This document shows positions 11,401 to 39,046 of a stretch of 64,000 nt of DNA, in pieces. The translations under genes were made by a program, and so were the position numbers. Within the stretch, counting starts at the first letter, position 1, and each line of letters starts with the position of its first letter. A model generated the notes under the pieces. That model was not told the DNA's origin. It did not search any database and saw only the letters and a program-made list of their open reading frames with translations. Location: positions 32,001 to 96,000 of the IMG/VR virus record IMGVR_UViG_3300010162_000393; one strand, 5' to 3'. Source of the DNA: a virus (Duplodnaviria > Caudoviricetes).

Positions 11401-14400
11401 GGGGCATGGTCAATAGTAGACGGTGATTTACCAATTGGTTTATCGTTGAATGAAGAAACCGGTGTGATTAGTGGAACACCAACCGAAAACGGAGTATTCC
11501 CAATAACTGTAAAATTTGAAAACGATTGCGGTAGTGATGAAACGGAAATATTAATTGTTATTTGTAAAGAGCCGGAAATCACAACTGAAGAAATGACACC
11601 ATCATTAAATAACCCATATTCCCAAAACATAGAATATACCGGTACGGAACCTCATACATGGGCAATAGTAGGCGGTGACTTACCATTGGGATTAGTATTG
11701 AATGAATTTACAGGTGAAATTAGCGGAACGCCATTAGAATTTGGAGATTTTATAATCACTGTTAAAGCAGAAAATGACTGCGGTGAAGATGAAAAAAGTA
11801 TTTTAATATCTGTGTGCGCCGCACCAACTGTTATAACCACCGGTCTTGAATTTGTGGTGGGTCAAGAAGGTTCAGAAGTGTTAGAATCTTTTGGAACACC
11901 AGGAACATGGTCAATAGAAGATGGTGATTTACCAGAGGGGTTGCTATTAGACCCAGATACTGGTGAAATTAGCGGAACACCTACTGATTTAGATGTGTTT
12001 GGTGAAATAAAAATAACAGTTAAGGTTGAAAATGATTGTGGTGATGACGAAAAAGAAATAACCTTATTCATTTGTAGAGAACCTGAAATCACAACAGAAG
12101 ATATGTATGCTTTCGTAGACGAAGAATTTTCAGAATTTATTGTTTATGAAGGTAGTGAACCACATTCGTGGGAAATAGTAGACGGAGATTTGCCTGATGG
12201 TTTAGATTTAGACCCTGAAACAGGTGAAATTAGTGGAACACCAACCGAGTTTGGAGATTTTATATTCACCGTAAAAGTAGAAAATTACTGCGGTGAAGAT
12301 GAAAAAGAAATTCATATGTTCGTATGTGCTCCACCAGAAATTGAAATAGAAGATGACGAATATGATGCCGTAATGGGAGAAGAGTTCTCAATGCAACTAA
12401 CCGCTTACGGAACAGGAGGTGAGTGGTCAATCGAAGATGGTGATTTACCGGAAGGATTGACCTTGAACTCTGAAACAGGTGAAATTAGTGGAACCCCAAC
12501 AGAGTTTGGGGTTTTTACTATCACTTTTAAAATAGAAAATAATTGTGGTGAACAAAATGTTGAAGTCACTATATATGTTTGTGGAGAACCGGAAATTTCA
12601 ACCGGACAATATATCCACCTTGTACAATTAGAAGAATTTGAATTACAATTAGAATTTACTGGTACTCAACCAGGAACATGGTCTGCCGTTAATTTACCAG
12701 ACGGATTAGTATTATCAGAAGATGGTTTATTAAGCGGAATACCAACAGGACATGAAGATGTTACATCACAAATAACTGTTACCAACGACTGCGGTACAGA
12801 CACAAAATCTTTTTTTTTTGATGTAGATGATGTTCATCGACTTATATTTGAAGTAAAAGATATAAGAACTGGTGATCATATACCTGACGCAACTGTTTTA
12901 TGTCCAGGTCTCGATGCGGTAGAAAATGTTGGATCGGGATTTTACATAACAATATTAAATGACGGTACATATACTTGGAGTGTATCAAAAGAGGGGTATT
13001 ACCCAAAGAGTGGAACGGTCATAGTAGAAGGAGATGAAGCGGAAGATATTCACGTATTGGTAGAGCTTCAACCATTAACACATGAAATTAAATTTATCGT
13101 TACAGATGAAGATAGCGGCGACCCGATTATTGGTGCAACCATTGATGTTGTAAATAAAGAAAGTGGTGATACTGTATCTTTAACAGATAACGGTGACGGA
13201 ACATATACTGCATTTATAATCAACGGTGAATATGATTATGATGTGTCAAAAGAAAAATATATCCCAGCAGACGGAGAATTTGAAATCGACCATGATGATG
13301 AAGTGGTTGAAGTACAACTTAAACTTGCTTGCGTAGTTCCAACTATTACAAGTGGAGATAGTATGTATTTCGTAATGGATGAAGAAGGTTTTGAACTCTT
13401 AGAATATACCGGAACAGAAGGAGAGTGGTCAATAGTTGAAGGTGATTTACCTGACGGATTAGATTTAGATCCTGAAACAGGTGAAGTTAGCGGAACGCCA
13501 ACCGAATATGGAAACTTTATATTCACAGCGAAAATAATAAATGAGTGTGGTGAAGATGAAATAGAAATTGATTTATTCGTTTGTGCACCAGAAACAGAAA
13601 TAATAAGCGATGATGAATATGAGATTGTAAGCGGATCGCCTGTTTCGATACAATTAACCACATCGGCAACATTGGGTACGTGGGAAATTGTAGATGGTGG
13701 TTTACCAGCAGGTTTAACGTTAAGTGAAACTGGTTTGATTAGCGGTACAGCAACTGAAATTGGTGAGTTTTGGTTCACAGTAAAAATGGAGGCACCATGT
13801 TGTGAAGACGAAATGGAAATTTATATGTTTGTCTGCGGAACACCAACTATTACAAGTAGTAATAATATGTACTTTGTAATGGGTGAAGAAGACGACTTTC
13901 AATTAACTGCTACCGGATCAGAAGGTCTTTGGTCTATATCAACAGGTTCATTACCATCTGGATTAACATTAGATGCTGGAACTGGTGAGATTAGCGGAAC
14001 ACCTACTGTATATGGTAACTTTACATTCACGGTTAAAATTGTAAATCCTTGTGGTGAAGCAACTCAAAACGTTAATATGAGCATTTGCGGTAAGCCTGAA
14101 ATTACAAGTGCTAATCTTGGATTTGTAATGGATGAAGTTGGAGCGCGACAATTACAATATGACGGTAGTAGACCAGGAACATGGGCAATTGTAGACGGTG
14201 ATTTACCTGCCGGATTAGCATTGAATGCTTCAACAGGTATAATTATTGGTGTACCAACCGAATTTGGGGTATTTGAAGTAACAGTAAAAGTTACCAATGT
14301 TTGTGATGAAGATACAAAAGAAATTATTATAACGGTTTGCGCATCGCCTGAAATTACAAATGAAAATACAATGGAATTCACAATAGGCGAATCAGGTTCT

Positions 14401-17400
14401 GAACAATTAACATCTTCTGGAACAGCGGGAACTTGGTCAATCGAAACAGGTACATTACCTGCCGGATTGACATTAAACGGAACAACCGGTGTAATTAGTG
14501 GAACACCTACCGAATTTGGTGATAGTTTCAAGTTCACGGTGAAAGTTACTAATCCTTGTGGTAGTGATACAATGGAGATTGATATGTTTGTTTGTGGAAA
14601 ACCAGAAGTTACAACTACCGAAATGGAATTTGTAATGGGGGAAGAGAAAACTGAACACTTAACATTCACAGGGACTACACCAGGAACATGGACAATCGAA
14701 GACGGTGATTTACCGGAAGGGTTGGAATTAGATGAAGAAACTGGTGAAATTAGCGGTACACCGACCGAATTTGGCGAATTTTCAATAAGTGTAAAGGTTG
14801 AAAACCATTGCGGTGACGATATAAAAGAAATTGATATAATAGTATGTGGAGAACCGGAAATTACAAGTAGTAATACTATGGAATTTACAATGGGTGAACC
14901 GGGTTCTGAACAATTAACACATACAGGAACAGAAGGTACATGGTCAATTGTTAGCGGAGAAAGCGATGGAAGTTTTGATGACGACTTTGATGATGACTTC
15001 GATATTGGAGAAGAAGCAAGTGAATTACCAGATGGATTATCATTAAATCCGGAAACCGGTGTTATCAGCGGAACCCCAACTGAATTTGGAAACTTTACAA
15101 TTACGGTTAAAGTTGAAAATGATTGCGGTGAAGATGAAATGGAGGTTGAAATAATAATATGTGGTAAACCGGGAATTATAAGTGACGAATTTGACATTGT
15201 AATGGGTGAACCAGAATCTATCTTATTATTACACGAAGGTAGTGCTCCCGGAACTTGGAATATAGAAGATGGTGATCTACCAGATGGTTTAACATTGAAC
15301 GAGGCAACTGGTGAGATTAGCGGAACAGCAAGTGAATTTGGGGTATTTTCATTCACGGTTAAAGTAGTTAATGCTTGTGGTAGTGATACAAAAGAAATAG
15401 AAATAACTGTTTGTGCGGAACCAGAAATTACAAGTGACGATACGACAGATTTTGTAATGGGAAAACCGGGTTCTAAACAATTAACATATTCAGGTACAGA
15501 AGGTATTTGGTCAATATCAAATGGTATATTACCAAATGGGTTGGCGTTGAATACCATAACAGGTTTAATTAGCGGCACACCTACCGAATTTGGTGATTTT
15601 TCAGTTACAGTAAGAATAGTAAATGATTGTAACGAAGATAGTCAAGTAATTAATATGTTTGTTTGTGGAGAACCAGAAATTACAAGCGACGATGAAATGT
15701 TTTTTGTAATGGATGAAGAAGGTTCTAAACAATTAACATATGTTGGTTCACCTGGTGTTTGGTCAATATCAAATGGTGATTTACCAGAAGGTTTAGATCT
15801 AAACGGAGAAACAGGTTTAATTAGCGGAACAGCGACTGAATTTGGTGAATTTATGTTCACTGTAAAAATAACAAACGACTGTGGGGAAGACGAAATGGAG
15901 ATCGAACTATTCGTTTGTGCAACAGATTCTGAAATAACAAGTGATAATGAGTATGAAATTGAAACCGGAAAAACTGTTTCAATACAATTAACTGCTTCTA
16001 AAACATTAGGTGAGTGGGTAATCGTAGATGGTGGATTACCTATTGGGCTGACATTAAATAAAGAAACCGGTTTGATTAGCGGAACAGCAACAGAATTTGG
16101 TGATTTCAAATTCACTGTAAAAATGGAAACAATTTGCGGTGAAGATGAAATGGAAATTGATATATTTGTTTGCGGTGCACCCGTTATTACAAGTGGTAAT
16201 AGTATGAGTTTCGTAATTGATGAACCCGGTTCTGAAACATTAACATACACAGGAACAGAAGGTACATGGTCAATATCAGTTGGTTCATTACCAAACGGTT
16301 TATCACTAAACACTACAACCGGAGTTGTTAGTGGAACGCCCACTGTATACGGTAACTTTATGTTTACGGTAAAAATAACAAATCCTTGTGGTGAGGCATC
16401 TAGAAATATTAATATGTTCATTTGCGGAACACCTGAAATAACAAGTGGTGATAACATGTTTTTCGTAATGGGCGAGTCCAGTTCAGAAACATTAACATTT
16501 GACGGTAGTAGACCTGGAACATGGGCAATAGAAGAAGGGATATTACCAGGTGGTTTATTGTTAAACGGAACAACTGGTGTGATTACTGGAACTCCGACAG
16601 AGTATGGAGATTATGTTTTCACGGTGAAAATTACAAACCCTTGTGGTTGGGCAACAAAACAAATTAATATGTTGGTGTGCACCGAACCAGAAATAACAAC
16701 AAGTATTAATGAATATGATGGTGTAAAAGGTAATCCTATTTCAATAGAATTAGAATCAATCGGAACAGACGGTGTTTGGTCAGTATCAGCGGGTAAATTA
16801 CCTACAGGATTATTGTTAGATGATGAAACCGGAATAATTAGCGGAACACCAACAGAATTTGGTGACTTCACATTTACAGTAAAAATTACTAACCCTTGTG
16901 GAGTAGATACATTAGAGATAGAATTATTTATTTGTGGTCCAGCGGAAATTATAACAGGTCAGTATTTCCATTTTATACAAGAAGAAGAGGTTGAAGAAAC
17001 ATTAGAGTTTGAAGGAACTCATCCCGGTGTTTGGACAGCAGAAGATTTACCAGAAGGATTAGTGTTGTCAGAAGAAGGTAAATTAAGTGGCTCCCCAACA
17101 GAATTTGGTGAATTTAGAACACAAATAACTGTTAACAATGATTGTGGTGGAGATACAAAAGAATTTTTATTTGAAATAGATGATATTCATCGAATTATAT
17201 TTGAAGTAAAAGATATAAGGACTGGTGATCATATACCTGATGCAACTGTTGTTTGCCCTGATTTAGAAATAGAAAACGTTGGTTATGGTTTTTATGTGAC
17301 AAAATTGGTTGACGGAACGTATGATTGGACAGTTTCAAAAGAAGGTTATTATACTGAAACAGGTACGGTTATTGTAGAAGGAGATGAAGCAGAAGATATT

Positions 17401-19827
17401 CATGTATTAGTCTTACTCCAACCTTTGACACACGAAATTAAATTCATAGTAACAGATGAAGACAGTGGTGAACCGATTATTGGCGCAACCATTGATGTTG
17501 TAAATTCAATAAGTGAACAAGTTGTGTCTTTAACTGATAACGGCGATGGAACATACACGGCGTTTATAGTAAATGGAGATTATGATTATGATGTTTCAAA
17601 AGAAAAATATATACCAAAAGATGGTAGATTCAACATTAATCGTGATGATAAAGTAATTGAAGTACAACTTAAACTTGCATGTGAAATACCTGTTATTACA
17701 AGTAGTAATGAGATATTTTCCCTAATAGGTGAAGAAATTTTCTTACAATTGGAACAAGATGGTACACCGGGTGTATGGACATTGGTTGAGGTAACAGGTT
17801 ATGGTGGTGATTTTAATAACGATTTTAGTAACGATTTCAGTATCGGTAAAAACACTGGTAAATTACCTATTGGGGTAACATTTGATTCTGAAAACGCTAT
17901 TATTGGCGGTATACCAAATGAGTTTGGTATCTTTACCGTTACTGTAAAGTTGGAAAACGACTGTGGTGAAGATGAAATGGAAATTGAAATCTTTGTCTGT
18001 GCTGAATCCGAGATAACAAGTACTAATGAAATTATTAACGAAGAAGAGACTCTTCATACAGTAACACTTCTTACAACTATAGAGCGACGCACAAGTCAAA
18101 TTTTCAACGGAAAGTTGTATATGCCACAAGAACAAGGTACCACCCTTGAAATTTTTGATTTGATAACTGAATCTAGTCGCACGGTAACACTTACAAATAT
18201 GGGGCGATACACAAGTCAAATTTTCAACGGAAAGTTGTATATGCCACGAGCACATCAGTTTCCTACCGGTATCGGCACCCTTGAAATTTTTGATTTGGTA
18301 ACTGAAGTTAATCGCACGGTAACGCTTCCTACAAATAATATGATGCGATACACAAGTCATATTTTCAATGGAAAGTTATATATGCCACAAAGTTGGGGTA
18401 CAACCCTTGAGATTTTTGATTTGATAGAAGAAACTACTCGGACGATAACACTTCCTACAAGTATGGAACGATACACAAGTCAAATTTTCAACGGAAAGTT
18501 ATATATGCCACAAAGTTTGGGTACAACCCTTGAGATCTTTGATTTGGTGACAGAAACTACTCGGACGGTAGCACTTCCTACAAATATGTGGCGAAACACA
18601 AGTCAAATTTTCAATGGAAAGTTATATATGCCACAAAATAACGGTACCACCCTTGAGATTTTTGATTTAACGACAGAAACCACACGCACGGTAACACTCC
18701 CTATAGAAGTGTCTCAGGCAAGTCAAATTTACAATGGAAAGTTATGTATGCCACGTTCTGGTGGTGGAACCACCCTTGTGATTTTTGATTTGATAGAAGA
18801 AACCACTAACATGGTAACACTTTCAACTACAAATACGTTCCTATTAACAAGTCAAATTTACAATGGAAAGTTATATATGCCACAAACCAATGGTACCACC
18901 CTTGTGATTTTTACCACCACAATTATAAAATCAAGTTTATTTGAAATAGAAACAAATAAATATGTTTCAATACAATTAACCGCTTCTGCAACTCCTGGAA
19001 CATGGGTAATTACAGAAGGTGTATTACCACTTGGTTTAGTGTTAAATAATAAAACTGGGTTGATAAGTGGTATTGCAACCGAATTTGGAGAGTTTACATT
19101 TACGGTTGAATTGGAAACACCTTGTAGTATTGATACAACGGAAATTAACATGTTTGTTTGCGGCGCACCTGTTATTACAAGCGGTAATAGTATGTATTTC
19201 GTAATGGGAGAAGGTGACTATAGTGAACAATTAGAATATGTTGGCACAGAAGGTGAATGGTCGGTTTCAACAGGAACATTACCTAGTGGTTTATATTTAA
19301 ATCCAATAACCGGTGTTGTAGATGGTACCCCGAATGTATATGGTAACTTTACTTTCACAATTAAAATTGAAAACCCTTGTGGAGAAGCAACTAAAAACAT
19401 TAGTATGTTCATTTGCGGAAAACCAACCGTTATAACTAATCAGTTAAATTTTGTTAGAGGTGAATTTGGTTCAGAAGAATTAATATTTGCTGGTAGTAGA
19501 CCTGGATATTGGTCAATATTTGGTGGTAGTTTTGACGATGAGGATTTTGATGAATCCTTTGAGACAGAAGACGCTGAATTACCATATGGTTTATCATTAG
19601 ATCCAAATACCGGTATTATTAGCGGAACACCGATTGAAATAGGAAACTATGCAATTCTTGTTAAAGTTGTTAATCCTTGTGGTGAAGCAACAAAAGAAAT
19701 TAATATATTAATATGCGATGAATTTGATATAACAAATGATAATCAATATGATATTATAAAAGGTGATCCTATTTTAATACAATTAACAACTACTTTTGGT
19801 AAAAAAGATGAACCAATAGCACATTAA
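2437..19827 (+). CDS. Giant virion fibre/stalk protein: tandem putative-Ig (He_PIG-like) repeats, carboxypeptidase-regulatory-like domains, inserted beta-propeller
   Basis: 5796 aa; about 84-aa repeat C-x-x-P-x-I...W-S-I-x-x-G-x-L-P-x-G-L-x-L...G-x-I-S-G-T-P-T-x-x-G-x-F...N-x-C-G; no signal peptide; late motif upstream. Confidence 0.8.
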   Translation: MASKFSVNRHATQKYSVYSRVVNDISPVVVASTAKSPNDIIFTITFYVTDFNDKKIPDASVSIVSHDFKIINHFDGSYKVIDVPNGKYEYVVEKTGFVAVEGVVTVSGSDLEVHVKLCEVPSKIVNGNLNFVMNEEMYQKFGYVGSTPGTWSVVKGELPNGITFDHDGILSGTPRAFGKFEVTVMVENSCGSVTKDLLIQVCAVPEITTVDFVLPHKQTVSEQLSFYGSEPATWSVEDGLLPKGLLLNGQTGVISGTTKDYGDFDVTFKVANACGEDVKELKITICAKPKITSNDDTKFTMGEEGSVQLTSYGNPGVWTLYSGNLPNGLTLSEDGILSGTPTTFGKFDFTVKVENACGEDRQFMKVWICGKPEVVSGDMSFVMGQPVSHQLQFSGSRPGTWSIVEGVLPKGLTLNAETGVISGTPKEFGESSFTVMVVNPCGEATKVVNASLCAKPTIMSCCSGCDTNFVKGQEASMQYEASGSAGTWSVLGGILPTGLTLDPNTGIISGTPTVGGYYEFTLKFTNPCGEVEKCMSLFVCAEPSIKGSGEISFAMGQPGSHELHFEGSRPGIWSVSEGVLPAGVSLNAELGVISGTPTEFGDFDFTLKVTNHCGESTKEMNISICGQPQITSAGNINILTGESVNIQLESNGTPGVWSAEYGLPEGLSLSADGLISGEPTESGNFNVLITLTNDCGEASRNFNIFVCAEPEILTGDFDVLQNTPMSKQLQFAGSRPGTWSIEEGSLPWELKMDSKGVVSGTPKKVGSFSVLLKVKNYCGEVTKPIVVTSKKTYKATFIVKMEDGTMVPDASVVVGGFIVTNNNNGTYESYLTDGAHGFTVTKEGYEVEEGVVEIDGEDVVVTIILCVFPEILNGDMSFVMGVAKVVQLESTGSAGEWSIQGDLPEGLTFNATTGVISGTPEEFGEFEITLIMTNPCGSVSKDIEIVICGAPEITSSDEIEFVKGEKSSYELEFFGTDPATWEVSEGSLPAGLTLDAATGEIKGTPTVFGDFVFTVKVTNECGFDEQEISMFICAEPEVTSSGTLSFVMTEEHSEQLTSSGTPGVWSIVTGNLPDGLSLNVATGVISGTATEFGDFTVVVRVVNECGEATKETVISVCGLPVVTSGDMEFVMNEPVSHQLTAEGTEGTWRLLSGKLPLGLTLDSETGIISGTPTEFGDFSIVLRFTNVCGVARKILNIFVCAKPQITSANNINFALSDEASFQLEYTGTPGTWSVVDGDLPEGVTLKPTTGVISGTPVEAGNYYVTLKIENACGDATKSVNIFVCAEPVIIVSNIEFLQNVYVSKQLDFTGSRPGKWEVVSGSFPAGITLATNGVVSGIPTEMGNFEVVVKVKNPCGEDTKEISLFSCAKPVIINDNNIAFVKGEESAVQIEAIGTEGTWSIVSGALPNGLSLDPSGEISGTPTEGGTFKVTVQLENPCGVTTKMMVINVCAKPIIVSGDLDFVQNTPVSHQLRFIGSRPGKWSISAGNLPAGLSLDPNTGIISGSTHEFGEYNLTISVENECGVANKDIIMSTCSKPGIVSGDMNFVINEEGSSLLENSGTAGTWSIISGSLPNGLELDEITGEISGTPTVSGIYTFTVKVVNSCGEATKVVNLYVCAKPVISTGDLSFVMGEAVSQKLQYTGTRPGEWSIEGELPNGLTFNAETETISGIPSEFGEFEVILIVKNPCGEASKTIEIVICAKPVITSDHADFVMGEESSVELEGNGTEGVWTVDSGVLPEGLSLSSDGILSGTPAVSGNHSFTVKFKNACGESIKTILIYICAKPTIVSGDLNIVMGTPMSQQLIFSGTRPGTWSIESGNLPTGITLSEDGVLSGTTTEFGDFDVVIRVENPCGIALKPITIDTCAKPTITNNSDLTFVMNEYSSDELTASGTAGVWSVIGGSVLPDGLELDEETGIISGTPTVSGTFNIVVKIENHCGEDIRSIAIQICAKPTITSGELDFEVGVHGSETLTFTGSRPGTWSIVEGALPAGLTLNGATGVISGTPTEFGEFFVEVKVENHCGEETKEIEIFVCSKPAVTSGSNMNFVMGEAGSAQLTSSGTEGEWEIFAGELPAGLELDEETGLIYGNPTVFGNFAFTVMVVNPCGSATQEINMFICGKPAVISGDMEFVMGEESEEQLMFSGSRPGTWSVVEGDLPEGLTLDAETGVISGTPTEFGDIVFTVKVENPCGEATKEITAVVCGKPVVTSGTNMTFVMNEHSSEQLTSSGTEGIWSIDDGELPMGLILDPETGVISGTPLVFGNFVFTVKVENPCGEATEEINMFICGKPAVLNSTHPNFVMGEENELQLLFSGSRPGTWSIEEGELPEGVTLDPETGIISGIPTEFGDFEFTVKVENPCGEATKDFEMFVCAKPEIISPDKYDSVFDEEILFQLENTGTEGIWEITEGELPLGLELDEEGLIVGTPRVFGHFKFKVMVVNPCGEDEMEIDMFICKLPEIVSEEFDFVLGEESSEELTFIGSRPGSWSVVEGDLPAGLVLDSVEGTISGTATEKGDFNITLKVINPCGEDTKEIKIFVCEEPEVTSGGYFEFVMGNEVELQLEHTGTDGEWSLVEGDYLPEGLELNSETGLISGIATEFGNFYFTVKLTNYCGEAYKVIQIFMCGLPEILTESMGFVMGEEDDHQIVATGSMPGTWSIIEGVLPNSFVLNTSTGIISGTLTEHGEFPITVKLVNSCGETTKEIIITVCQTPTITSENDLEFVMGERVTFQLTNDGTAGEWEIIDGELPEGLRLNPLTGVISGRAREFGNFTFTVKIDNHCGSDTQVIEMFMCGLPVILHGNMNFQINEPGSDTFIGDGTPGTWSIVGGGLLPTGLTLNPTTGEVSGTPTVAGHFELVVKLENDCGSIMRDVVIFVCAPPEIIGEIDDFYVMGSEISQEFQFSGSRPGEWSVVGGDLPEGVTFDPETGILSGIPTEHGEFIFTVKVENPCGEATKEINIFICLEPEIITGGLEFDFNEYGEFELEVIGSEGAWSIVDGDLPIGLSLNEETGVISGTPTENGVFPITVKFENDCGSDETEILIVICKEPEITTEEMTPSLNNPYSQNIEYTGTEPHTWAIVGGDLPLGLVLNEFTGEISGTPLEFGDFIITVKAENDCGEDEKSILISVCAAPTVITTGLEFVVGQEGSEVLESFGTPGTWSIEDGDLPEGLLLDPDTGEISGTPTDLDVFGEIKITVKVENDCGDDEKEITLFICREPEITTEDMYAFVDEEFSEFIVYEGSEPHSWEIVDGDLPDGLDLDPETGEISGTPTEFGDFIFTVKVENYCGEDEKEIHMFVCAPPEIEIEDDEYDAVMGEEFSMQLTAYGTGGEWSIEDGDLPEGLTLNSETGEISGTPTEFGVFTITFKIENNCGEQNVEVTIYVCGEPEISTGQYIHLVQLEEFELQLEFTGTQPGTWSAVNLPDGLVLSEDGLLSGIPTGHEDVTSQITVTNDCGTDTKSFFFDVDDVHRLIFEVKDIRTGDHIPDATVLCPGLDAVENVGSGFYITILNDGTYTWSVSKEGYYPKSGTVIVEGDEAEDIHVLVELQPLTHEIKFIVTDEDSGDPIIGATIDVVNKESGDTVSLTDNGDGTYTAFIINGEYDYDVSKEKYIPADGEFEIDHDDEVVEVQLKLACVVPTITSGDSMYFVMDEEGFELLEYTGTEGEWSIVEGDLPDGLDLDPETGEVSGTPTEYGNFIFTAKIINECGEDEIEIDLFVCAPETEIISDDEYEIVSGSPVSIQLTTSATLGTWEIVDGGLPAGLTLSETGLISGTATEIGEFWFTVKMEAPCCEDEMEIYMFVCGTPTITSSNNMYFVMGEEDDFQLTATGSEGLWSISTGSLPSGLTLDAGTGEISGTPTVYGNFTFTVKIVNPCGEATQNVNMSICGKPEITSANLGFVMDEVGARQLQYDGSRPGTWAIVDGDLPAGLALNASTGIIIGVPTEFGVFEVTVKVTNVCDEDTKEIIITVCASPEITNENTMEFTIGESGSEQLTSSGTAGTWSIETGTLPAGLTLNGTTGVISGTPTEFGDSFKFTVKVTNPCGSDTMEIDMFVCGKPEVTTTEMEFVMGEEKTEHLTFTGTTPGTWTIEDGDLPEGLELDEETGEISGTPTEFGEFSISVKVENHCGDDIKEIDIIVCGEPEITSSNTMEFTMGEPGSEQLTHTGTEGTWSIVSGESDGSFDDDFDDDFDIGEEASELPDGLSLNPETGVISGTPTEFGNFTITVKVENDCGEDEMEVEIIICGKPGIISDEFDIVMGEPESILLLHEGSAPGTWNIEDGDLPDGLTLNEATGEISGTASEFGVFSFTVKVVNACGSDTKEIEITVCAEPEITSDDTTDFVMGKPGSKQLTYSGTEGIWSISNGILPNGLALNTITGLISGTPTEFGDFSVTVRIVNDCNEDSQVINMFVCGEPEITSDDEMFFVMDEEGSKQLTYVGSPGVWSISNGDLPEGLDLNGETGLISGTATEFGEFMFTVKITNDCGEDEMEIELFVCATDSEITSDNEYEIETGKTVSIQLTASKTLGEWVIVDGGLPIGLTLNKETGLISGTATEFGDFKFTVKMETICGEDEMEIDIFVCGAPVITSGNSMSFVIDEPGSETLTYTGTEGTWSISVGSLPNGLSLNTTTGVVSGTPTVYGNFMFTVKITNPCGEASRNINMFICGTPEITSGDNMFFVMGESSSETLTFDGSRPGTWAIEEGILPGGLLLNGTTGVITGTPTEYGDYVFTVKITNPCGWATKQINMLVCTEPEITTSINEYDGVKGNPISIELESIGTDGVWSVSAGKLPTGLLLDDETGIISGTPTEFGDFTFTVKITNPCGVDTLEIELFICGPAEIITGQYFHFIQEEEVEETLEFEGTHPGVWTAEDLPEGLVLSEEGKLSGSPTEFGEFRTQITVNNDCGGDTKEFLFEIDDIHRIIFEVKDIRTGDHIPDATVVCPDLEIENVGYGFYVTKLVDGTYDWTVSKEGYYTETGTVIVEGDEAEDIHVLVLLQPLTHEIKFIVTDEDSGEPIIGATIDVVNSISEQVVSLTDNGDGTYTAFIVNGDYDYDVSKEKYIPKDGRFNINRDDKVIEVQLKLACEIPVITSSNEIFSLIGEEIFLQLEQDGTPGVWTLVEVTGYGGDFNNDFSNDFSIGKNTGKLPIGVTFDSENAIIGGIPNEFGIFTVTVKLENDCGEDEMEIEIFVCAESEITSTNEIINEEETLHTVTLLTTIERRTSQIFNGKLYMPQEQGTTLEIFDLITESSRTVTLTNMGRYTSQIFNGKLYMPRAHQFPTGIGTLEIFDLVTEVNRTVTLPTNNMMRYTSHIFNGKLYMPQSWGTTLEIFDLIEETTRTITLPTSMERYTSQIFNGKLYMPQSLGTTLEIFDLVTETTRTVALPTNMWRNTSQIFNGKLYMPQNNGTTLEIFDLTTETTRTVTLPIEVSQASQIYNGKLCMPRSGGGTTLVIFDLIEETTNMVTLSTTNTFLLTSQIYNGKLYMPQTNGTTLVIFTTTIIKSSLFEIETNKYVSIQLTASATPGTWVITEGVLPLGLVLNNKTGLISGIATEFGEFTFTVELETPCSIDTTEINMFVCGAPVITSGNSMYFVMGEGDYSEQLEYVGTEGEWSVSTGTLPSGLYLNPITGVVDGTPNVYGNFTFTIKIENPCGEATKNISMFICGKPTVITNQLNFVRGEFGSEELIFAGSRPGYWSIFGGSFDDEDFDESFETEDAELPYGLSLDPNTGIISGTPIEIGNYAILVKVVNPCGEATKEINILICDEFDITNDNQYDIIKGDPILIQLTTTFGKKDEPIAH
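18050..18920 (+). repeat. Seven 120-141-nt tandem repeats encoding beta-propeller blades (TSQIFNGKLYMP...GTTLEIFDL)
   Basis: Repeat cores start at 18091, 18211, 18352, 18475, 18598, 18718 and 18847. Confidence 0.85.
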
Positions 19828-19830
19828 TAT

Positions 19831-19838
19831 CTATTTAT
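19831..19838 (+). promoter_or_regulatory. Putative late promoter CTATTTAT
   Basis: Lies in the 47-nt gap between the giant ORF and its continuation. Confidence 0.65.
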
Positions 19839-19874
19839 GAATAAAAGAAAAATAATATTTAAATATAAAAAATT

Positions 19875-22664
19875 ATGGATTCAAAATTAATAAACGAATG
19901 GACAATTATATACGGTAGATTACCAAATGGTTTGTTGTTGGATAAGGAAACCGGTGAAATAAGCGGTATCCCAACCGAAACAGGTAACTTCACATTTACT
20001 GTAAAGGTTGTAAATCTTTGTGGAGAAGAAACAATGGAGATAGAATTGTTTGTTTGCGCAATGCCTGAAATTACGACCGCACCATATTTTCATTTTATAC
20101 AATTAGAAGAAATTGAAGAAAAAATATTAGAGTTTGAAGGAACTCAACCAGGAGTATGGTCTGCTGTTAATTTGCCAGACGGGTTAATATTATCGGAAGA
20201 CGGAAAACTAACAGGAACACCAACCGGATATGGTGAAATAAAATCAGAAATAACTGTTACCAATGCCTGTGGAGCAGATACTGTAGAATTTCTTTTTGAT
20301 TTAGATGATGTTCATCAAATTATATTTGAAGTAAAAGATAAACGAACCGGTGAACATATACCTGACGCAACAGTTATTTGCCCTGATTTGGAAATAGAAA
20401 ATCATGATAATGGTTTTTATACAACAATACTGAATGACGGGGAGCATCCTTGGCATGTTTCAAAAGAAGGGTATTTTCCAGAAGAAGGGACCGTTGTAGT
20501 AGAAGGAGATGAGGGGGAAGATATTTATGTGTTGGTGGAACTTCAACCAACAACATATGAATTAAAGTTTATTGTTACATATGAAGATACAGGAAATCCG
20601 GTAACAGATGCTACTATTGGGGTTATAAATTCTGAAACTGAACAAATTATTTCTTTAACAAATAAAGGTGGTGGTGTGTACTCTACATTTGTTGAAAATG
20701 GTAAATATGATTGGGGCGTTTCAAAAGAAAGTTATATTCCAGTAGATGGTGACGTTACTATTAATTATGCGGACGAGGTAATTGAGGTTGCGCTTATCCA
20801 AACTACAAAAGAATTAATATTTAAGGTAATAAATAATGGTGGTAGTTTTAGTGAACTACATTTTGATAATTCTTTTGATGTTGGCGGAAGGTTAATTAAT
20901 GATGCGACGGTTGTTTCTGGTAATTCACTGATTGATTTAGATATAACAAACAACAATGACGGTACTTATAAAACAGAAGTGTTTTCTGGTACATATAACT
21001 ATGCAATATCAAAAGAGGGATTCATAACCGAAAAAGGTAGTGTAGTGGTGCAAAGTGAAAATGTTGAAGTTTCTGTCCCACTTTCTGAAATAGTTGGTAT
21101 TATAACAGTAAATGCGACTGTTGCCCTGAGTAATGCTACTTGTAGTGCAACAATATCAGCATCTCCTGTATTATCTGGTTATACATATGATTGGTCTTTA
21201 TGGAATATGGATACAGAAACTTTAATTTCACAATCTCTTAATCAAACAGGTACTACATGGAATATGGGAGCAATGAGTAGTGGAAATCAAAATGTACCTC
21301 TTGAAGTACGCTGTACTGTAAAAGAACCTGTTTCGTCCGGCACCGCTTCGTTTGTTTGTACCCCACTTCCTTTGTGGAGAGTAACACAATTAAACCCTAC
21401 TTTGACGGTAAATAGAGCAAATATAATAACAGGTGAAACATTTATTGCCACATGTACAAACACCGTCGGAATGTCGCCGTTTGAATATGTATTTGAGGTG
21501 ATTAACCGCAGTAACGGTGAAGTAATACACGGTCCAATAAATCAAGATGTGTTAAATATATTTGAATATACACCAGCGACATTAGGAAATTATGGTGTTC
21601 GTTGTAGAGTGAATGTAAAAAATATACCTGTTGAATTTTATGATCAAACAGATGGGTTAGCAACAAGACTCGCTACCGTTAGTGGTCAAACTGATAACAT
21701 TGCTAGGGTTGATGTATACGATCCTATTGTTGCGACAATATCAACACCAAAATTAGGTCTGATGGAAGATGAACCGTTTGTTGTAACATGTACTTGGTCT
21801 GGTGGTTTAAGTCCATTTAGTTTTATTTGGAGTATGTGGCGAAAAGATGGTAGTACTTATACACAAATTGGAGCAAATACCACTACTACATCTTTTCAAT
21901 ATGGTAATGGTACATCAGCTTTATTTCCTACTCAATTTGCAACGCTCTTTACAAGTGGTGAAGCGAGTGGAATTAAAGAGGTTGAATTTAGATGTAGAGT
22001 AGAGAGTACTTCAACTTTATTTAACCCTCGTTTATCATGTGATGTGGTTCCAATTGTTGTTCAAATAGAACGACCACCATTTCAGTTTGTTTCAATAACA
22101 TTGGAAGGTACTGAACCTGGAGATGGTGACGATGGGAAAAGTCCTAGTCATTTTTTTGGAACAACCATAAAGGCAACTATTAATTTTACTGGTGGTACAC
22201 TACCAATAACACGTTACCAAAGAAGATTATCAACCCTTACAAATACAAATGGAAATTTAATTGCACTTGGTGATATTACACCGCTATCACCAACATTTGA
22301 GTTTATATGGCCGGTGTCAAACGGATCAACAAGTGGTAATGTTGATCATGTTACCTTGTATTGTACAGTAAGAGATAATAAGAATAGAGAAATAAATGGT
22401 AGTATAATAATATATAATTATATGTTTGGTAAACTATCTGGTATTATCACTTACAATCAGAAAAAACCAACAGGTGATGAAACGCTACCATACGTTATAA
22501 CACCATATGGTGGTGTTGGAACAGTTTATTATAGTTGGAAAATATACGATAATGAAACCAATGAATTAGTTGCAACGATTCCATCAATTGGTACCCAAAC
22601 CGGTACAACTATTAATTATGCAATTCCCTCAAGTCTTGCTCATTATGATGCTTTGATAAAATAA
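19875..22664 (+). CDS. Fibre continuation protein: half Ig repeat, Ig, carboxypeptidase-regulatory-like and PKD-like domains
   Basis: Starts mid-repeat (EWTIIYGRLPNGL...NLCG); later GG-x-x-P-F/Y-x-Y-x-W...C-x-V PKD-like units. Confidence 0.75.
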   Translation: MDSKLINEWTIIYGRLPNGLLLDKETGEISGIPTETGNFTFTVKVVNLCGEETMEIELFVCAMPEITTAPYFHFIQLEEIEEKILEFEGTQPGVWSAVNLPDGLILSEDGKLTGTPTGYGEIKSEITVTNACGADTVEFLFDLDDVHQIIFEVKDKRTGEHIPDATVICPDLEIENHDNGFYTTILNDGEHPWHVSKEGYFPEEGTVVVEGDEGEDIYVLVELQPTTYELKFIVTYEDTGNPVTDATIGVINSETEQIISLTNKGGGVYSTFVENGKYDWGVSKESYIPVDGDVTINYADEVIEVALIQTTKELIFKVINNGGSFSELHFDNSFDVGGRLINDATVVSGNSLIDLDITNNNDGTYKTEVFSGTYNYAISKEGFITEKGSVVVQSENVEVSVPLSEIVGIITVNATVALSNATCSATISASPVLSGYTYDWSLWNMDTETLISQSLNQTGTTWNMGAMSSGNQNVPLEVRCTVKEPVSSGTASFVCTPLPLWRVTQLNPTLTVNRANIITGETFIATCTNTVGMSPFEYVFEVINRSNGEVIHGPINQDVLNIFEYTPATLGNYGVRCRVNVKNIPVEFYDQTDGLATRLATVSGQTDNIARVDVYDPIVATISTPKLGLMEDEPFVVTCTWSGGLSPFSFIWSMWRKDGSTYTQIGANTTTTSFQYGNGTSALFPTQFATLFTSGEASGIKEVEFRCRVESTSTLFNPRLSCDVVPIVVQIERPPFQFVSITLEGTEPGDGDDGKSPSHFFGTTIKATINFTGGTLPITRYQRRLSTLTNTNGNLIALGDITPLSPTFEFIWPVSNGSTSGNVDHVTLYCTVRDNKNREINGSIIIYNYMFGKLSGIITYNQKKPTGDETLPYVITPYGGVGTVYYSWKIYDNETNELVATIPSIGTQTGTTINYAIPSSLAHYDALIK

Positions 22665-22695
22665 TATAAAAATAATATAAAAAAATAATAATAAA

Positions 22696-25600
22696 ATGGC
22701 ACATTATCCATACAATGATTTACGTTTAGAATGTACAATAACCAATAGCGGAAATTCAAATGAATTTGTTGCAAAAGAGTGGGTTACACCAGCCGTACCG
22801 GTTGCAGCATGGGAGGGGACAAAAGAACCTATGTTAACTGGTTTAGCATTTCCCAAACCAACAAATTTGAGATATGCTAATATAACCAACCATGTCTATT
22901 CGCCAACAAGAAATACCGCATATTATTATAATAACCAAGTTATTCAATATTCAAGTGTATTAAGTCCAATTCGGTTAGTATATATATTGAAAATTACCGA
23001 TTTTATTATGACAAGTTGTACGGTTGGGTGTTTGCACCCAGACGGGGTAATATTTTTATGTAATAATAACACTAGTTCTTCAAGAGCAATATTAGTAAAG
23101 GAAATAAGTGAAGAACCATTTGCTGATTATGAAACAATACATAATTATCCGGGTGCTTTACCGGATACTAATGGTAATAGGAGACTTCATTTTGTTCATT
23201 ATTATGATAATAAATTCTATGCGCAAAATGGTGTAGTATATGATATGAATTATAACGAAATTGCTACCCATTTAGTTGATAACACAGCAAAAGTAGCACC
23301 CGTTAATCCAAAACTTCAACCAAATAGATGGTGGATTGGTACAGCTACTGCAAATGGTGGAACAAAATCGTGTTATATTTCAAATAATGATAGTGCGAAT
23401 AGTTATACAAATTCTTTATCTGTTTCCCATTTTTATCGTGATGTTGAAATTAATTCAACAACAACTGATCCAGCATCAATATCGTTTAATTGGAAAGGTG
23501 TTGGTGATACGACTTGGGGTTATTTACAGTTTCGTGTTATAGAAACTAGTGAAACGCCGGTACCAGGTACACTACCTTCAGGATCCTCTCTTGTTGGTAA
23601 TTTATTTAATAGTTCAGTGTGGATAAATAGAGTTGTTACTCTAGGTGAAATGTCTGGTGTAAAACGTATTGTGTTTACATGGCGTAATACCGCAAATACT
23701 ACTTACCAACCACCTGCTGCCGTAGATAACATTATTATTAAGACGAATGTTGGTCCAGATATTATTGAGGATTTTGAGAGCGGTGATGGTACAACACTTG
23801 ATAATTGGGTGTTTCCGGATCCTCTAGTTATATTACCACCAAATATATCATATTACGGTTTTAATACAGAAAGAGATATATTATATGGTTATAATGCTAA
23901 TCTATTGAATACAAATAATGGGGATGGAAAATTTCTTTGTAATATTCGTATTAATAATACCGGAAATTTAATTCTAGCTGTTTATGATGTTGTAAGTAAT
24001 AATGTTAAAGTGTTAAATAGCATAGTAACAAATAATATATCATATTTTGGTTATTATTTTGCGAATAATTGTGTTGTTGTATTAATGCATGATATTTTGG
24101 ACTCCCAAACACCAAGAATGGCAAAGGTTAAAATATATGATTTAATTTCCGATAATATAACGGAATTAGATATTAAACGATCAACCACTTTCACAACTTT
24201 TTATGTTAGACCAACATTTGATAAAAGATATGTAAACATTGCAACAAATCTTACTGTTGCTACTACACCACGCATATATGAAACATATTTTACATTTGTT
24301 GATACTATTGATAAGCGAATAATAACCAGAAACGGATCATATTCTTATAATAATAATTCTGGTAGTAACGATACTGCTCTTTCTTTTCATATGACTTATG
24401 CGTATGCTTTTATTGAATATGAAGGTGAATTTGTTGGTATCCATACAAAATTGAGTGATGGTAATGCGCTACATTCATTATGTGATGTTCCGGTAGTTCT
24501 TGGTGATAGAATATATTCATACGGACATACTTCAGCAAACCATCCTGTTTATTTTGTGGATAAAACGAATCAATTAACATTATTATCAACAAATGATAAT
24601 ACATATCAAGAACTTAATCCAACAACCACACCTGTATGGTTTTTACCTACTTCTAATCTTGTTTATTTACAATATAATAATAATATATATAAAATAGGTA
24701 TTTCTAATTTTTATGTTGGAACTAATAATTATAGCGTTTCGTTGGTTGTTTCGGTTTATGATGTTGCTTCTTATTCATGGAGTGTTGTTAATAAATTGAA
24801 TTTATCTAGTGGTAATAATAATAGTGATTTTAGAATTATTCGCGCATGTTTTGATGAAGATTATGTGTATTTATTAGTAAACTATGCAAATAGTACCGCA
24901 TTAAGAATAATTATATTTAATAAAATAACATACGAGTTAATATCAAATACTGATGCTCAACGTAATCAACCATTTTATATTAGTTTTAATAATACTCAAA
25001 CTGCTCTTTGGAATTTTAGTAGTAGATATGGAAATGGTAGTAGTAATTTGCGACCAACAATATCAACATCTAATATGTTTTATAACAATTTTTATCTTTT
25101 CTTTGACATTAGTTATACACCAGTCCCATTTATGATATATGATATGAAAACACGTATAATTCATCAAATGATGTGGGATGGTTGTAATAGTACAACCTCT
25201 GGACTATCTATACCAAGTAATACGGCTAGTAATTATACAATTACATTCGTTGAGTTGGATAATAATAAAATATTAGCTTCAGCGTTTTTTAATAATAATT
25301 TTAGTTTAATATTAGAACATGATTTATCTACAAGATCAACTATTTTGTTAAACCATTCAAACTGGAATGATAGTACTATGGGGCGTGAAAGAAAACTTGT
25401 ACTTGGTAATATTTATAGGGTTGCTGATCGTATATATATTAATACCACAGCAACCACAGGTGGTGTGGCATTTGATCTTGATTATAACCCTGTTTCTTTT
25501 AGTGGTATTACACCAACTCAAGATTATTCAGATTATTATCGTCTTAATTATAATAACATTACACCTCATTATTTTGTAAATTCAGATAACACAATAATAA

Positions 25601-28008
25601 AAGATAATGATGTTATAACTGTAACAAATATTGATTCCGGATATGTTTTAAGAACACATCTTTATGTGGATGGTATGTCATGTGTGTTATGTGGAAGAAC
25701 TAACGATAAACCAAGATTATATCTTTTAAATGAAGATTTTTCAGTTACATTTTTACGTGAATATAATGAAAGTAGTATTTCTCATACCAGTAATAATAAT
25801 ATTATTAATAGAAATGTTTGGAATATTGGAAAAAATGTTTTATATTCCGGTAGGATACCGAATACATTGCCTTTGAAAAGGATACCTTCAAACGTTTCCT
25901 CAATGAGTTATATCAACCCAATGAGAAATCATGATTCATTTTATCTTGTTTCATTCGCTAATGGTGGTATTATGAAACAAACTGGTCCAACAACATTTAC
26001 ATTAACTACTGCGCCTGTTGAATATACATATAGCGCATTTGGTATAAGCACAAATACAATACTTTTACGTGGAAGATATGCTGGTACTAGTAACGATTTG
26101 TGGTATAAATGGGATGAATTTAACACTCCTGCATGGGTTCAATGTGGTGGTACTAATCCATCTTCTCCAACACTTGTTACACAAAATACTTGTACTGATA
26201 GGATTTATATTATGAATAGTAGTCAAATATTTAAATATGATCGTAATACAAATACTATTAATTTATTTCAAACTTTGGGTGGTTTTATTGCTACTGATTT
26301 GTATATACAACATAAAGATCACAAAGAAGGTAGAATGTATTTTGTTAGAAATAATATACTATATAGAGAATCAGATGATTTATTATCAATAGTAGAAGTG
26401 TTAAGAAGCGAAACTAATATTGTTAATGTTATTATTTGTCCCGGAGATTTGTTGTATTATGCTAATACAAGGGATGTGTTTTCATTTAATGGAGTAACAC
26501 AAAATAGAATTGGTACAACAGGGTCAACGACTAATATTGTTGATATAGCAATTGATGGTGATGGAGTGATTTGGGGTATAACAGGTAGCACAACATTTAA
26601 TATTAAAAATGGTGTTATAAGTGAAAGTATTACAATGTGTAGATATATAACTGTATCAAGTCAAACTAATCAAAGAGAATTATCAGCGACTTATGGTGCA
26701 CTAACAAGACTTATAATTGAACCAGAACATAATAGAAGGTTTATGTTTAATACTAATTATCAATTTTATTGGTCTGATTTATACAATATTAATATAACAC
26801 GTACTCAACGAACTATTGATACCGGAAGGATAAGATTATTTTTATATAATAATTATATATTTAGTATTAGTGATACTGAAGTAGTGGTTTGGTTCGTAGA
26901 TGTCTACGGGAATCTCGTGTCTTCAGAATTTGATTGGCAAATGGGTAACGATAAAAGACATCTCGTTTGTTATAAACCGTTTGCGGTTGGTGCTGATACA
27001 CATATATGGGATAACCCTAACCCAAGTGGTGTAATTGAAAATATGCACACCAGTGATATAACTGATGTGATAACCGACCAGTATTCTGGTTGGATGCAAA
27101 TAGCTGGTAATTGGGAATCTTTTAATGCAATTGTACCTAGAAAGTCTAATGAATATTCATATAATAGTAGACCAAGATTTTGGGATCAAAATATTAAAAT
27201 TAATAATATGGAAGTTGCTAGCAGAGTTTCGATATGGACAGGAACTGAAAGTATATATTTACCACTTAATATTATTGCTGTAACAAATAAACTTGTTGGT
27301 TCAGGAAATGATTTAAGGATTTCATTGACTGTAAAGGGAAGTGGGTATATGTACCTTAGTTGGGGTGTAGATTCACCAATACAAGTAGAATTGACCGGTT
27401 CTGAACAAACATTCGATTATCAATACACAGCAAAAAATTTTCATACAATAACTATCTATGCAAATGATGTTACATACTTTAAATGTACTAAAGCTAAATT
27501 AATGCAGGTGGATATATCGAAAAATAAAACATTAACACGTATAGATGTTCAGGATAATTTATTATGGGAATATGAATTAAATCATATTATTGAACATCTA
27601 CCACCAGTAACAGGAGGAACAATTAAAATTTGTGATAATCCTGCTTCAGATACTTGTGATAGATTTAGTGTTATTGAAAAAGGATGGGATTTTGATGCAT
27701 ATCAGGATAATATTGATATCACAGAAGTCAATAATTCTATTGTAAATATTTATGATACACATGGTGATATAGATGATAATGAAAATAATGTTAAAACCAT
27801 TGAACAAGCAAGAGCAAGTGTTATGCGCATTCTTGCAACCACATATCCTGTGGATTTTAATGATGTGAAACCAACGTTAGAAGACATTGCGTTTGTTCCT
27901 GCCGGAGGTGGTGTAAACGGTTATTATGATTTTTATATGAAACTCAATAAGTGTGAGGGAGCAGAACAGATCGTAGGACCATTAAGATTAGATATTTGGG
28001 CAGTTTAA
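22696..28008 (+). CDS. Large beta-rich putative receptor-binding/virion surface protein with inserted adhesin-like domain and short C-terminal LRR
   Basis: 1770 aa, N/Y/T-rich, propeller-like segments; adhesin module 23323-23811; internalin-like VDISKNKTLTRIDVQDNLL near the C-terminus. Confidence 0.6.
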   Translation: MAHYPYNDLRLECTITNSGNSNEFVAKEWVTPAVPVAAWEGTKEPMLTGLAFPKPTNLRYANITNHVYSPTRNTAYYYNNQVIQYSSVLSPIRLVYILKITDFIMTSCTVGCLHPDGVIFLCNNNTSSSRAILVKEISEEPFADYETIHNYPGALPDTNGNRRLHFVHYYDNKFYAQNGVVYDMNYNEIATHLVDNTAKVAPVNPKLQPNRWWIGTATANGGTKSCYISNNDSANSYTNSLSVSHFYRDVEINSTTTDPASISFNWKGVGDTTWGYLQFRVIETSETPVPGTLPSGSSLVGNLFNSSVWINRVVTLGEMSGVKRIVFTWRNTANTTYQPPAAVDNIIIKTNVGPDIIEDFESGDGTTLDNWVFPDPLVILPPNISYYGFNTERDILYGYNANLLNTNNGDGKFLCNIRINNTGNLILAVYDVVSNNVKVLNSIVTNNISYFGYYFANNCVVVLMHDILDSQTPRMAKVKIYDLISDNITELDIKRSTTFTTFYVRPTFDKRYVNIATNLTVATTPRIYETYFTFVDTIDKRIITRNGSYSYNNNSGSNDTALSFHMTYAYAFIEYEGEFVGIHTKLSDGNALHSLCDVPVVLGDRIYSYGHTSANHPVYFVDKTNQLTLLSTNDNTYQELNPTTTPVWFLPTSNLVYLQYNNNIYKIGISNFYVGTNNYSVSLVVSVYDVASYSWSVVNKLNLSSGNNNSDFRIIRACFDEDYVYLLVNYANSTALRIIIFNKITYELISNTDAQRNQPFYISFNNTQTALWNFSSRYGNGSSNLRPTISTSNMFYNNFYLFFDISYTPVPFMIYDMKTRIIHQMMWDGCNSTTSGLSIPSNTASNYTITFVELDNNKILASAFFNNNFSLILEHDLSTRSTILLNHSNWNDSTMGRERKLVLGNIYRVADRIYINTTATTGGVAFDLDYNPVSFSGITPTQDYSDYYRLNYNNITPHYFVNSDNTIIKDNDVITVTNIDSGYVLRTHLYVDGMSCVLCGRTNDKPRLYLLNEDFSVTFLREYNESSISHTSNNNIINRNVWNIGKNVLYSGRIPNTLPLKRIPSNVSSMSYINPMRNHDSFYLVSFANGGIMKQTGPTTFTLTTAPVEYTYSAFGISTNTILLRGRYAGTSNDLWYKWDEFNTPAWVQCGGTNPSSPTLVTQNTCTDRIYIMNSSQIFKYDRNTNTINLFQTLGGFIATDLYIQHKDHKEGRMYFVRNNILYRESDDLLSIVEVLRSETNIVNVIICPGDLLYYANTRDVFSFNGVTQNRIGTTGSTTNIVDIAIDGDGVIWGITGSTTFNIKNGVISESITMCRYITVSSQTNQRELSATYGALTRLIIEPEHNRRFMFNTNYQFYWSDLYNINITRTQRTIDTGRIRLFLYNNYIFSISDTEVVVWFVDVYGNLVSSEFDWQMGNDKRHLVCYKPFAVGADTHIWDNPNPSGVIENMHTSDITDVITDQYSGWMQIAGNWESFNAIVPRKSNEYSYNSRPRFWDQNIKINNMEVASRVSIWTGTESIYLPLNIIAVTNKLVGSGNDLRISLTVKGSGYMYLSWGVDSPIQVELTGSEQTFDYQYTAKNFHTITIYANDVTYFKCTKAKLMQVDISKNKTLTRIDVQDNLLWEYELNHIIEHLPPVTGGTIKICDNPASDTCDRFSVIEKGWDFDAYQDNIDITEVNNSIVNIYDTHGDIDDNENNVKTIEQARASVMRILATTYPVDFNDVKPTLEDIAFVPAGGGVNGYYDFYMKLNKCEGAEQIVGPLRLDIWAV

Positions 28009-39008: not shown

Positions 39009-39046
39009 ATAAATAGAGGGAAATTTTTGGTTTAACGTCTATTTAT
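39009..39046. promoter_or_regulatory. Divergent pair of CTATTTAT late motifs (39009-39016 minus; 39039-39046 plus)
   Basis: One motif faces the sheath gene, the other the nuclease gene. Confidence 0.65.

Follow-up and report, generated by a model that had tools for sequence, protein, structure and literature searches.

A cadherin-like repeat divided between two adjacent fibre-like genes of a termite-gut jumbo phage, and its possible role as a joint between their products

The DNA window analyzed here, a stretch of 64,000 nucleotides that corresponds to bases 32001–96000 of a 136.9-kb IMG/VR virus record (CheckV completeness 38%), contains four large plus-strand open reading frames (ORFs) in series, g1, g2, g3, and g4, and this report concerns the junction between the first two, at which one repeat of a long tandem array is divided between two genes. 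g1 (2437–19827, +, frame 1) encodes a giant fibre-like protein of 5796 aa with 58 complete He_PIG repeats of ~84–86 aa and one N-terminal half-repeat at its C-terminus, whereas the 929-aa product of g2 (19875–22664, +, frame 3) begins with a C-terminal half-repeat, followed by one terminal-type He_PIG repeat, CarboxypepD_reg-like domains, and PKD-like units. The g1 stop codon and the g2 start codon are separated by 47 nt, the two ORFs lie in different frames, and all three frames hold stops between them. Further downstream follow g3 (22696–28008, +, 1770 aa) and g4 (28042–34728, +, 2228 aa).

The protein encoded by g1 ends with ...ILICDEFDIT...IQLTTTFG, then KKDEPIAH and a TAA stop, and that encoded by g2 starts with MDSKLIN and continues with EWTIIYGRLPNGL...VVNLCG. 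With a hidden Markov model (HMM) of 86 positions that was built from the repeats of these ORFs themselves, 58 complete copies were recognized in g1 and one in g2, and the tail of g1 and the head of g2 covered positions 1–27 and 31–86, respectively, which makes them complementary and non-overlapping. The last complete repeat of g1 (19414–19719, +, g1 aa 5660–5761), which has an acidic insert in its C-C' loop, is followed by the N-terminal half of the split repeat (19714–19800, +, g1 aa 5760–5788), consisting of a linker cysteine (C5760, TGC codon at 19714–19716, +) and the strands A, A', and B. The eight codons of the KKDEPIAH tail and the stop occupy 19801–19827 (+, TAA at 19825–19827). They are followed by a copy of the gene-upstream, promoter-like motif CTATTTAT (19831–19838, +), 36 nt 5' of the g2 ATG, and by an A/T-rich leader (19839–19874, +). 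The ATG at 19875 opens the head MDSKLIN (19875–19895, +), which is new sequence, and an in-frame stop three codons 5' of this ATG makes a longer g2 ORF impossible. The C-terminal half of the repeat then covers 19896–20060 (+, g2 aa 8–62) with the strands C, C', E, F, and G, including a cysteine in the F-G turn (C49, TGT codon at 20019–20021, +).

How the split may have arisen is indicated by paralogous regions within g1. Residues 8–307 of the g2 protein are 62–64% identical to two internal stretches of g1 in which the corresponding repeat is whole, and an alignment with the DNA of these paralogs revealed a single block of ~89 extra bases at the junction (19795–19883, +), positioned in the B-C loop and absent from the intact paralogous repeats. 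This insertion comprises the eight extra codons, the stop, the CTATTTAT copy, the A-rich leader, and the ATG, and its length, with 89 equal to 2 modulo 3, is in agreement with the frame change between g1 and g2. In the own-repeat HMM, the C-terminal half in g2 reached 88 bits (rank 41 of 60), which is above the median of the intact repeats; judged by this score, it is not decayed. The earlier note on this DNA had described a giant ORF that stops after the first half of a repeat and a following ORF that opens with the missing half, had stated that the joined halves match intact repeats, and had listed a stop, a separate CTATTTAT motif, an A-rich leader, and an ATG in the gap, and this description agrees with our analysis in every part, including the coordinates.

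The exact g2 protein was called on five contigs, three of which had readable DNA (ENA ERZ27257295, JGI 3300010882, Logan SRR5215140), and these three match the window across the junction with 0–1 mismatch over 4.8–8.8 kb. The earlier note had suggested a check of read support at this position; in Logan contigs from four termite-gut runs of three studies, some of which may represent the source sample while one is not flagged as such, region 19500–20200 was covered, with 0 differences and neither indels nor relevant joints. An artefact of assembly or sequencing, i.e., an indel or a chimera at 19795–19883, is thus effectively excluded: contigs from ENA, JGI, and Logan, which stem from different assemblers and different samples, have the identical junction, the contigs of the four runs show neither differences nor indels, and an 89-nt insert bearing a bona fide upstream motif is unlike a homopolymer-type error.

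The CTATTTAT motif occurs 22 times in the 136.9-kb record, and 18 of these copies are found in the 5% of the DNA that is intergenic (binomial P ~3e-20), typically 15–60 nt 5' of an ATG on the same strand. It is followed by AAA 3 nt later, and it precedes, among others, the starts of g1 and of the tail sheath gene, which suggests that it may be a promoter of structural, perhaps late, genes. In the window, it is present at 2372, 19831, 39039, 45072, 45495, 47593, and 53715 on the plus strand, and at 39009, 45045, and 53677 on the minus strand. The A-rich stretch 3' of the 19831–19838 copy is typical of the other copies as well, and the gap between g1 and g2 hence looks like an ordinary gene start of this phage. 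We detected neither a hairpin nor a terminator in this gap, and its predicted RNA structure is no stronger than that of shuffled controls (z = −0.10). As the gap lacks a terminator and has its own CTATTTAT element, transcription of g2 probably occurs by read-through from g1 as well as from this element. Apart from the 8-mer motif, no other copy of more than 15 nt of the insert was found in the 136.9-kb record.

Regarding the fold of the repeat, the C-terminal 999 aa of g1 matched He_PIG (PF05345) with an E-value of 2.5e-36 and 124 bits (cut-off 24), and g2 matched the same family with an E-value of 4.9e-11 and 43 bits, with residues 14–47 aligned to positions 46–81 of the 96 profile positions. 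An AlphaFold2 model of the closest intact paralog had a predicted local distance difference test (pLDDT) score of 96, with strands at residues 8–9, 15–19, 24–27, 36–42, 48–50, 56–59, 65–75, and 78–89. In this model, the position of the break is the loop between strand B (24–27) and strand C (36–42). A Foldseek search with the model returned 4nzj (template modelling (TM) score 0.81, root-mean-square deviation (rmsd) 1.3 Å), 4ogz, and SraP (4m02/4m03), as well as dystroglycan and E-cadherin; matches to solved He_PIG/CDHL domains had TM scores of 0.78–0.81 with an rmsd of 1.3–2.3 Å, and PDB profile matches reached 1e-11. By sequence and model, the repeat is a He_PIG cadherin-like immunoglobulin (Ig) beta-sandwich.

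Two further peculiarities of the array concern the same repeat type. A beta-propeller-like stretch of ~300 aa with blades of the IYNGKLYMPQ type (window ~18004–18912, g1 aa ~5190–5492) is nested within one He_PIG repeat, where it separates the A strand (CAESEITSTNE) from the remainder (FEIETNKYVSIQL...), and this repeat evidently accommodates large discontinuities near its N-terminal strands. In addition, acidic, Phe-periodic inserts such as GGSFDDEDFDESFE are present in the C-C' loop of a few repeats (window 19522–19566, g1 aa ~4160–4185 and ~5125–5140), and similar inserts occur in P0111, a protein of a related phage that is described next.

When the C-terminal 630 aa of g2, which are free of repeats, were used in an exhaustive search of representatives without profiles, three relatives were found, the proteins P0002, P0111, and the unsplit 5195-aa P0112. 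Scans of viral contigs with g2 alone or with the link protein described below gave no match, and a word-index search for longer proteins that contain the C-terminal region of g2 found none. The locus of P0002 (L005) is syntenic with the window, with 43% identity over the whole of g2 and a next gene that is 66% identical to g3. Its frame is open to the 5' end of the contig, the counterpart of the window's split repeat is whole, and, as far as the contig reaches, the locus is intact at both split sites. P0112 (L008), which is encoded on a 367-kb IMG/VR contig directly 5' of a g3 homolog, is a single protein of 5195 aa with 49 whole repeats that ends in a g2-like region. The situation is different on the 11.9-kb contig with P0111 (L006, or L009), where the array is cut twice, between geneA and geneB and between geneB and geneC. 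The geneA product ends with repeat positions 1–30 and QI, and after a gap of 80 nt with a tandem AATAATCAATAAATTAAAA, geneB encodes a protein of 291 aa that starts with MEGW at position 33, contains two whole repeats, and ends with positions 1–30 and a 16-residue acidic tail. After another gap of 134 nt, geneC, which encodes P0111 (938 aa), begins with MANNNGW at position 28. The HMM coverage at the two junctions is thus 1–30 with 33–86 and 1–30 with 28–86. The second gap (L006 3867–4000) contains a perfect 13-bp inverted repeat (GGATTCATCATCA...TGATGATGAATCC) followed by ATATTTAT, which looks like a terminator and a promoter inside a former single repeat.

An alignment of g2, P0111, and P0002 indicated that the split in the window and the geneB/geneC split affect adjacent repeats and not the same one. 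The three junctions hence lie in three different repeats, all of them at repeat positions 27–33; the chance that two further random breaks fall within ±3 of the first, over 86 positions, is ~0.007. By eye, tails, heads, and intergenic sequences of the three junctions have no evident mutual similarity. As both the more distant P0112 locus and the ingroup locus of P0002 are unsplit, the splits can be regarded as derived and independent, and the unsplit form is likely the ancestral state.

An ortholog of geneB was identified in another assembly by a word-index search. This protein, P0173 (290 aa), is 75% identical to the geneB product and shares with it the MEGWKVIS start as well as the half-repeat and the tail at the C-terminus. 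The C-terminal and N-terminal half-domains are 79% and 76% identical, respectively, the two whole repeats are 76% and 71% identical, and 16/16 residues agree in the tail. The half-domains are thus at least as conserved as the whole repeats, which is not expected for leftovers. According to the gene table of the P0173 contig (ENA ERZ27257344, 7059 nt), array genes of 717+, 432, 595, 178, and 290 aa are separated by gaps of 26–83 nt, and fragmentation may be more extensive in this lineage; the product of the 595-aa gene has a weak BACON match. The earlier note had regarded the split as evolved rather than as a frameshift and had pointed to homologous phages as a place to look for fused and split forms. 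Both forms were indeed found, fused at L005 and L008 and split at L009, and an evolved split is supported by the reproducible junction, the genuine upstream motif, the splitting of the same loop at two junctions of a relative, and the conservation of the half-domains in the 75%-identical ortholog.

The split itself, its reproducibility, its own upstream motif, the recurrence in the same loop in relatives, and the conservation of half-domains in one relative are established. We propose that g1 and g2 descend from a single giant fibre gene that was interrupted within a He_PIG repeat, where ~89 nt inserted in the B-C loop provided a stop, a promoter-like motif, a leader, and a start codon. In this view, g1 now ends with the strands A/A'/B, g2 begins with the strands C–G, and—provided that both chains are made—the halves would re-form one beta-sandwich after translation by fold complementation. 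Such a plug-and-socket joint would fix the 929-aa g2 segment to the C-terminus of the 5796-aa g1 stalk, and through g2, the products of g3 and g4 would probably also be attached to that stalk. That both chains are made and fold together are the steps that we infer here, and we consider it probable that the two halves join g1 and g2 in this way. Fold complementation is the simplest account because it explains the recurrence in the same loop, the conserved half-domains, and the existence of a protein with a half-domain at each end: the layout of the geneB product—a C-terminal half, two whole repeats, and an N-terminal half—makes sense mainly as a link.

Co-folding predictions were carried out with g1 aa 5757–5796 and g2 aa 1–64, each with an alignment of 51 paralogous pieces. 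Each of the three runs gave an interface score ipSAE of 0.41, and each of the three controls one of 0.00, which the tool classifies as ‘weak support’; the runs agreed in at least 89% of the contacts, and the pLDDT of the partner was at least 74. In the calibration of the tool, 58 of 80 solved complexes and 2 of 110 mismatched pairs passed the mark, but only 7 of those 80 complexes, and both of the mismatched pairs that passed, did so with an ipSAE of at most 0.60; moreover, alignments of paralogs lie outside this calibration, and halves of a known fold may score by their likeness to solved whole domains. The result can thus be taken as mild support for a joint. Fold complementation, by which the two chains would join according to the earlier note, is the best explanation of this putative joint, and the co-folding predictions lend it weak support.

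Several aspects weigh against a working joint. The N-terminal half in g1 scored 8.0 bits in the own-repeat HMM, the second lowest of 60 values, which was counted within the range of its own subtype (8.3–13.6), a subtype that also lacks an otherwise conserved proline. With all copies of the window junction at least 99.9% identical, the split in the window lacks evolutionary depth and may have arisen recently. The co-folding score falls into the weak band, and the recurrence at one loop could in part be due to a mutational hot spot and not to selection for a joint that works. These points would be compatible with a split that is real but forms no joint: g2 would have survived by gaining a start and a promoter, the half-repeats would be unstructured leftovers, and g2 would reach the virion by other contacts or never. 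There is a precedent in phage lambda PaPa, in which the stf gene is split by a frameshift and side tail fibres are absent. We nevertheless consider this explanation unlikely, as it leaves three junctions in the same loop unaccounted for, as well as half-domains and a tail that are conserved in the ortholog of the link protein, and as a protein in which two half-domains flank two repeats is otherwise hard to explain; in addition, the C-terminal half in g2 scores above the median, and both cysteines are kept.

A hot spot in the strict sense, i.e., a small mobile or recombining regulatory cassette that favours the coding sequence of the B-C loop irrespective of structural tolerance, would fit a working as well as a non-working joint. 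Three breaks within a few residues could be explained that way, and every gap indeed has regulatory-looking sequence—CTATTTAT in the window, the 13-bp hairpin with ATATTTAT in the second gap of the P0111 contig, and the tandem AATAATCAATAAATTAAAA in the first. However, as the three inserts, tails, and heads are not evidently similar by eye, as the insert in the window has no second copy in the 136.9-kb record beyond the 8-mer, and as inverted repeats or a clear target-site duplication were not seen, we regard such a cassette as quite improbable. Even less can be said for the reading that ribosomes bypass the gap or shift frame across it and still produce one polypeptide, as known from T4 gene 60. 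The gap is short, at 47 nt, but there are stops in all three frames across it, the RNA structure is no better than that of shuffled sequence, a matched pair of take-off and landing codons was not found by eye, and a promoter-like motif lies within the gap; the gaps on the P0111 contig have 80 and 134 nt, one of them with a terminator-like hairpin. With no structure, terminator, or matched codons, bypassing was ruled out, and recoding is effectively excluded.

A joint by fold complementation raises the question of whether the two chains might also be linked covalently. Each repeat has two near-invariant cysteines, one at position 1 in the linker (Cys1) and one at position 73 in the N-x-C-G turn between the strands F and G (Cys73), and both are present in 128 of 137 repeats from four phages. 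The apparent exceptions are mostly alignment offsets, as checked by eye for three cases in the window, and one is the repeat whose cysteine and A strand precede the ~300-aa nested propeller. At the ends of arrays, 4/4 repeats that are followed by non-repeat sequence lack a next linker cysteine, and 4/4 repeats that follow non-repeat sequence have a linker cysteine, and this pattern in 8/8 boundary cases indicates that Cys1 and Cys73 of one and the same repeat belong together. The cysteine is kept in all six half-domains seen, and in the split repeat, each chain contributes one, C5760 of g1 and C49 of g2. With the strand order placed on standard Ig-fold topology, the N-terminus with Cys1, the B-C loop, and the F-G turn cysteine would be at the same pole of the sandwich. 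If the cysteine pair forms a disulfide in whole repeats, an inter-chain disulfide would result at the split repeat. Such a disulfide lock, which the earlier note had predicted, fits the topology and the distribution of the cysteines, and it is a tentative possibility that we view with some doubt: virions assemble in the cytoplasm, and the termite hindgut, into which they are released, is largely anoxic, which makes disulfide formation uncertain. The cysteine pair could instead be structural or metal-binding.

A broader generalization would be that split He_PIG repeats serve throughout this clade of jumbo phages from termite guts as plug-and-socket connectors, with the segments of giant fibres—including short link proteins—concatenated by the complementation of three strands with five and each joint locked by the cysteine pair of the repeat as an inter-chain disulfide. 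In this full form, we hold the idea to be speculative and rather doubtful.

An Ig-like sandwich that is completed in trans is known from pili, and split genes are known from phage enzymes. Donor-strand complementation or exchange is used by chaperone-usher pili, Bacteroidia type V pili, and archaeal thread or bundling pili, in which an incomplete Ig-like beta-sandwich is completed by strands of another chain, resulting in a very stable joint between filament subunits. In pili, one strand is donated among homologous pilin copies with the help of a chaperone, usher, or protease, whereas in the phage, three short strands (A, A', B) would meet five (C–G), the partners are two different fibre proteins, the joint would have originated from a cut in a single repeat of a tandem array, and there is no evident chaperone. 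In a Pfam scan of the neighbouring ORFs, only phage replication and tail proteins were matched, although this was no systematic search for chaperones, ushers, processing proteases, or pilin-type subunits. The comparison with pili is one of mechanism, not of membership. SpyTag/SpyCatcher and related split CnaB/Ig-like domains likewise reassemble from a divided Ig-like domain and permit a covalent lock, but they are engineered and use an isopeptide bond, whereas the split in the phages is natural and recurrent, and the bond would be a disulfide and is putative. Naturally split phage genes with reassembling products are the T4 topoisomerase genes 39 and 60 and the DNA polymerase gene 43 of phage Aeh1. 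There, too, inserted DNA interrupts a phage gene, and the products are thought to cooperate non-covalently; however, these are enzymes with larger inserts or mobile elements, while here ~89 nt interrupt a loop of a structural repeat, and the same loop is affected repeatedly. The He_PIG/dystroglycan-type domains of BF1418 (4nzj), BF4189 (4ogz), and the SraP CDHL domain (4m00–4m03) belong to the same family by sequence and fold, but the profile-aligned stretches of 4nzj and SraP have no cysteine at the F-G-turn position that is invariant in the phage repeats, and none of these domains has been reported to be split between genes. Strand-swap dimers of the classical cadherin domain EC1 also exchange the N-terminal A strand of a cadherin-type fold with a partner, but this swap is reversible, serves adhesion, and involves two complete domains, whereas each of the phage chains holds part of a domain. 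In the full-text open literature, we found no description of a split Ig-like repeat that joins phage fibre proteins.

As to the phage itself, all sequencing runs that contain the stretch are labelled termite gut metagenome, the G+C content is 32.5%, and a DnaB-like helicase, a 1319-aa tail sheath protein, an FtsH-like AAA/M41 protease, and a TnpB-type gene were identified with Pfam and PHROGs. The source is thus a large contractile-tailed phage, a jumbo myophage of the termite gut. No PHROGs family was assigned to g2 and g3, and a blastn search of the phage collection with 19000–21000 gave zero matches. The tail sheath homolog (35017–38976, −) is unusually long with its 1319 aa, and the sheath match is confined to residues ~990–1317. 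A 738-aa ORF (48804–51020, −) has AAA, ClpB_D2-small, and Peptidase_M41 matches and is FtsH-like, and the phage genome also contains an IS605 OrfB/TnpB-type gene (58210–59403, −) with HTH_OrfB_IS605, OrfB_IS605, and Cas12f1-like TNB domains. The boundary between g2 and g3 (22600–22760) is conserved in all four lineages, i.e., the window, L005, L006, and L008. The four earlier PKD-like units of g2 close with an x-x-C-x-V strand that is missing from the last one, g3 begins with MAHYPYNDLRLECTIT, which resembles the missing strand, and AHY is present on both sides of the boundary. This boundary may be a second, older strand-donation joint.

The split repeat also calls for caution in annotation, as a partial domain at the end of a gene need not be a pseudogene. 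For protein engineering, such repeats could provide a family of small split Ig domains that are possibly orthogonal and possibly covalently lockable. If the reading of the split repeat as a connector is true, it would represent a new principle of phage fibre assembly and, as a natural and genetically modular system, a counterpart of the SpyCatcher-type split Ig domains. If the halves co-fold, very long virion fibres could be built from separately translated pieces with an ordinary repeat as the connector, which would explain how giant phage genes can be fragmented without loss of function. Distal fibre modules could then be exchanged at the intergenic breaks, which would bear on the evolution of the host range of these phages.

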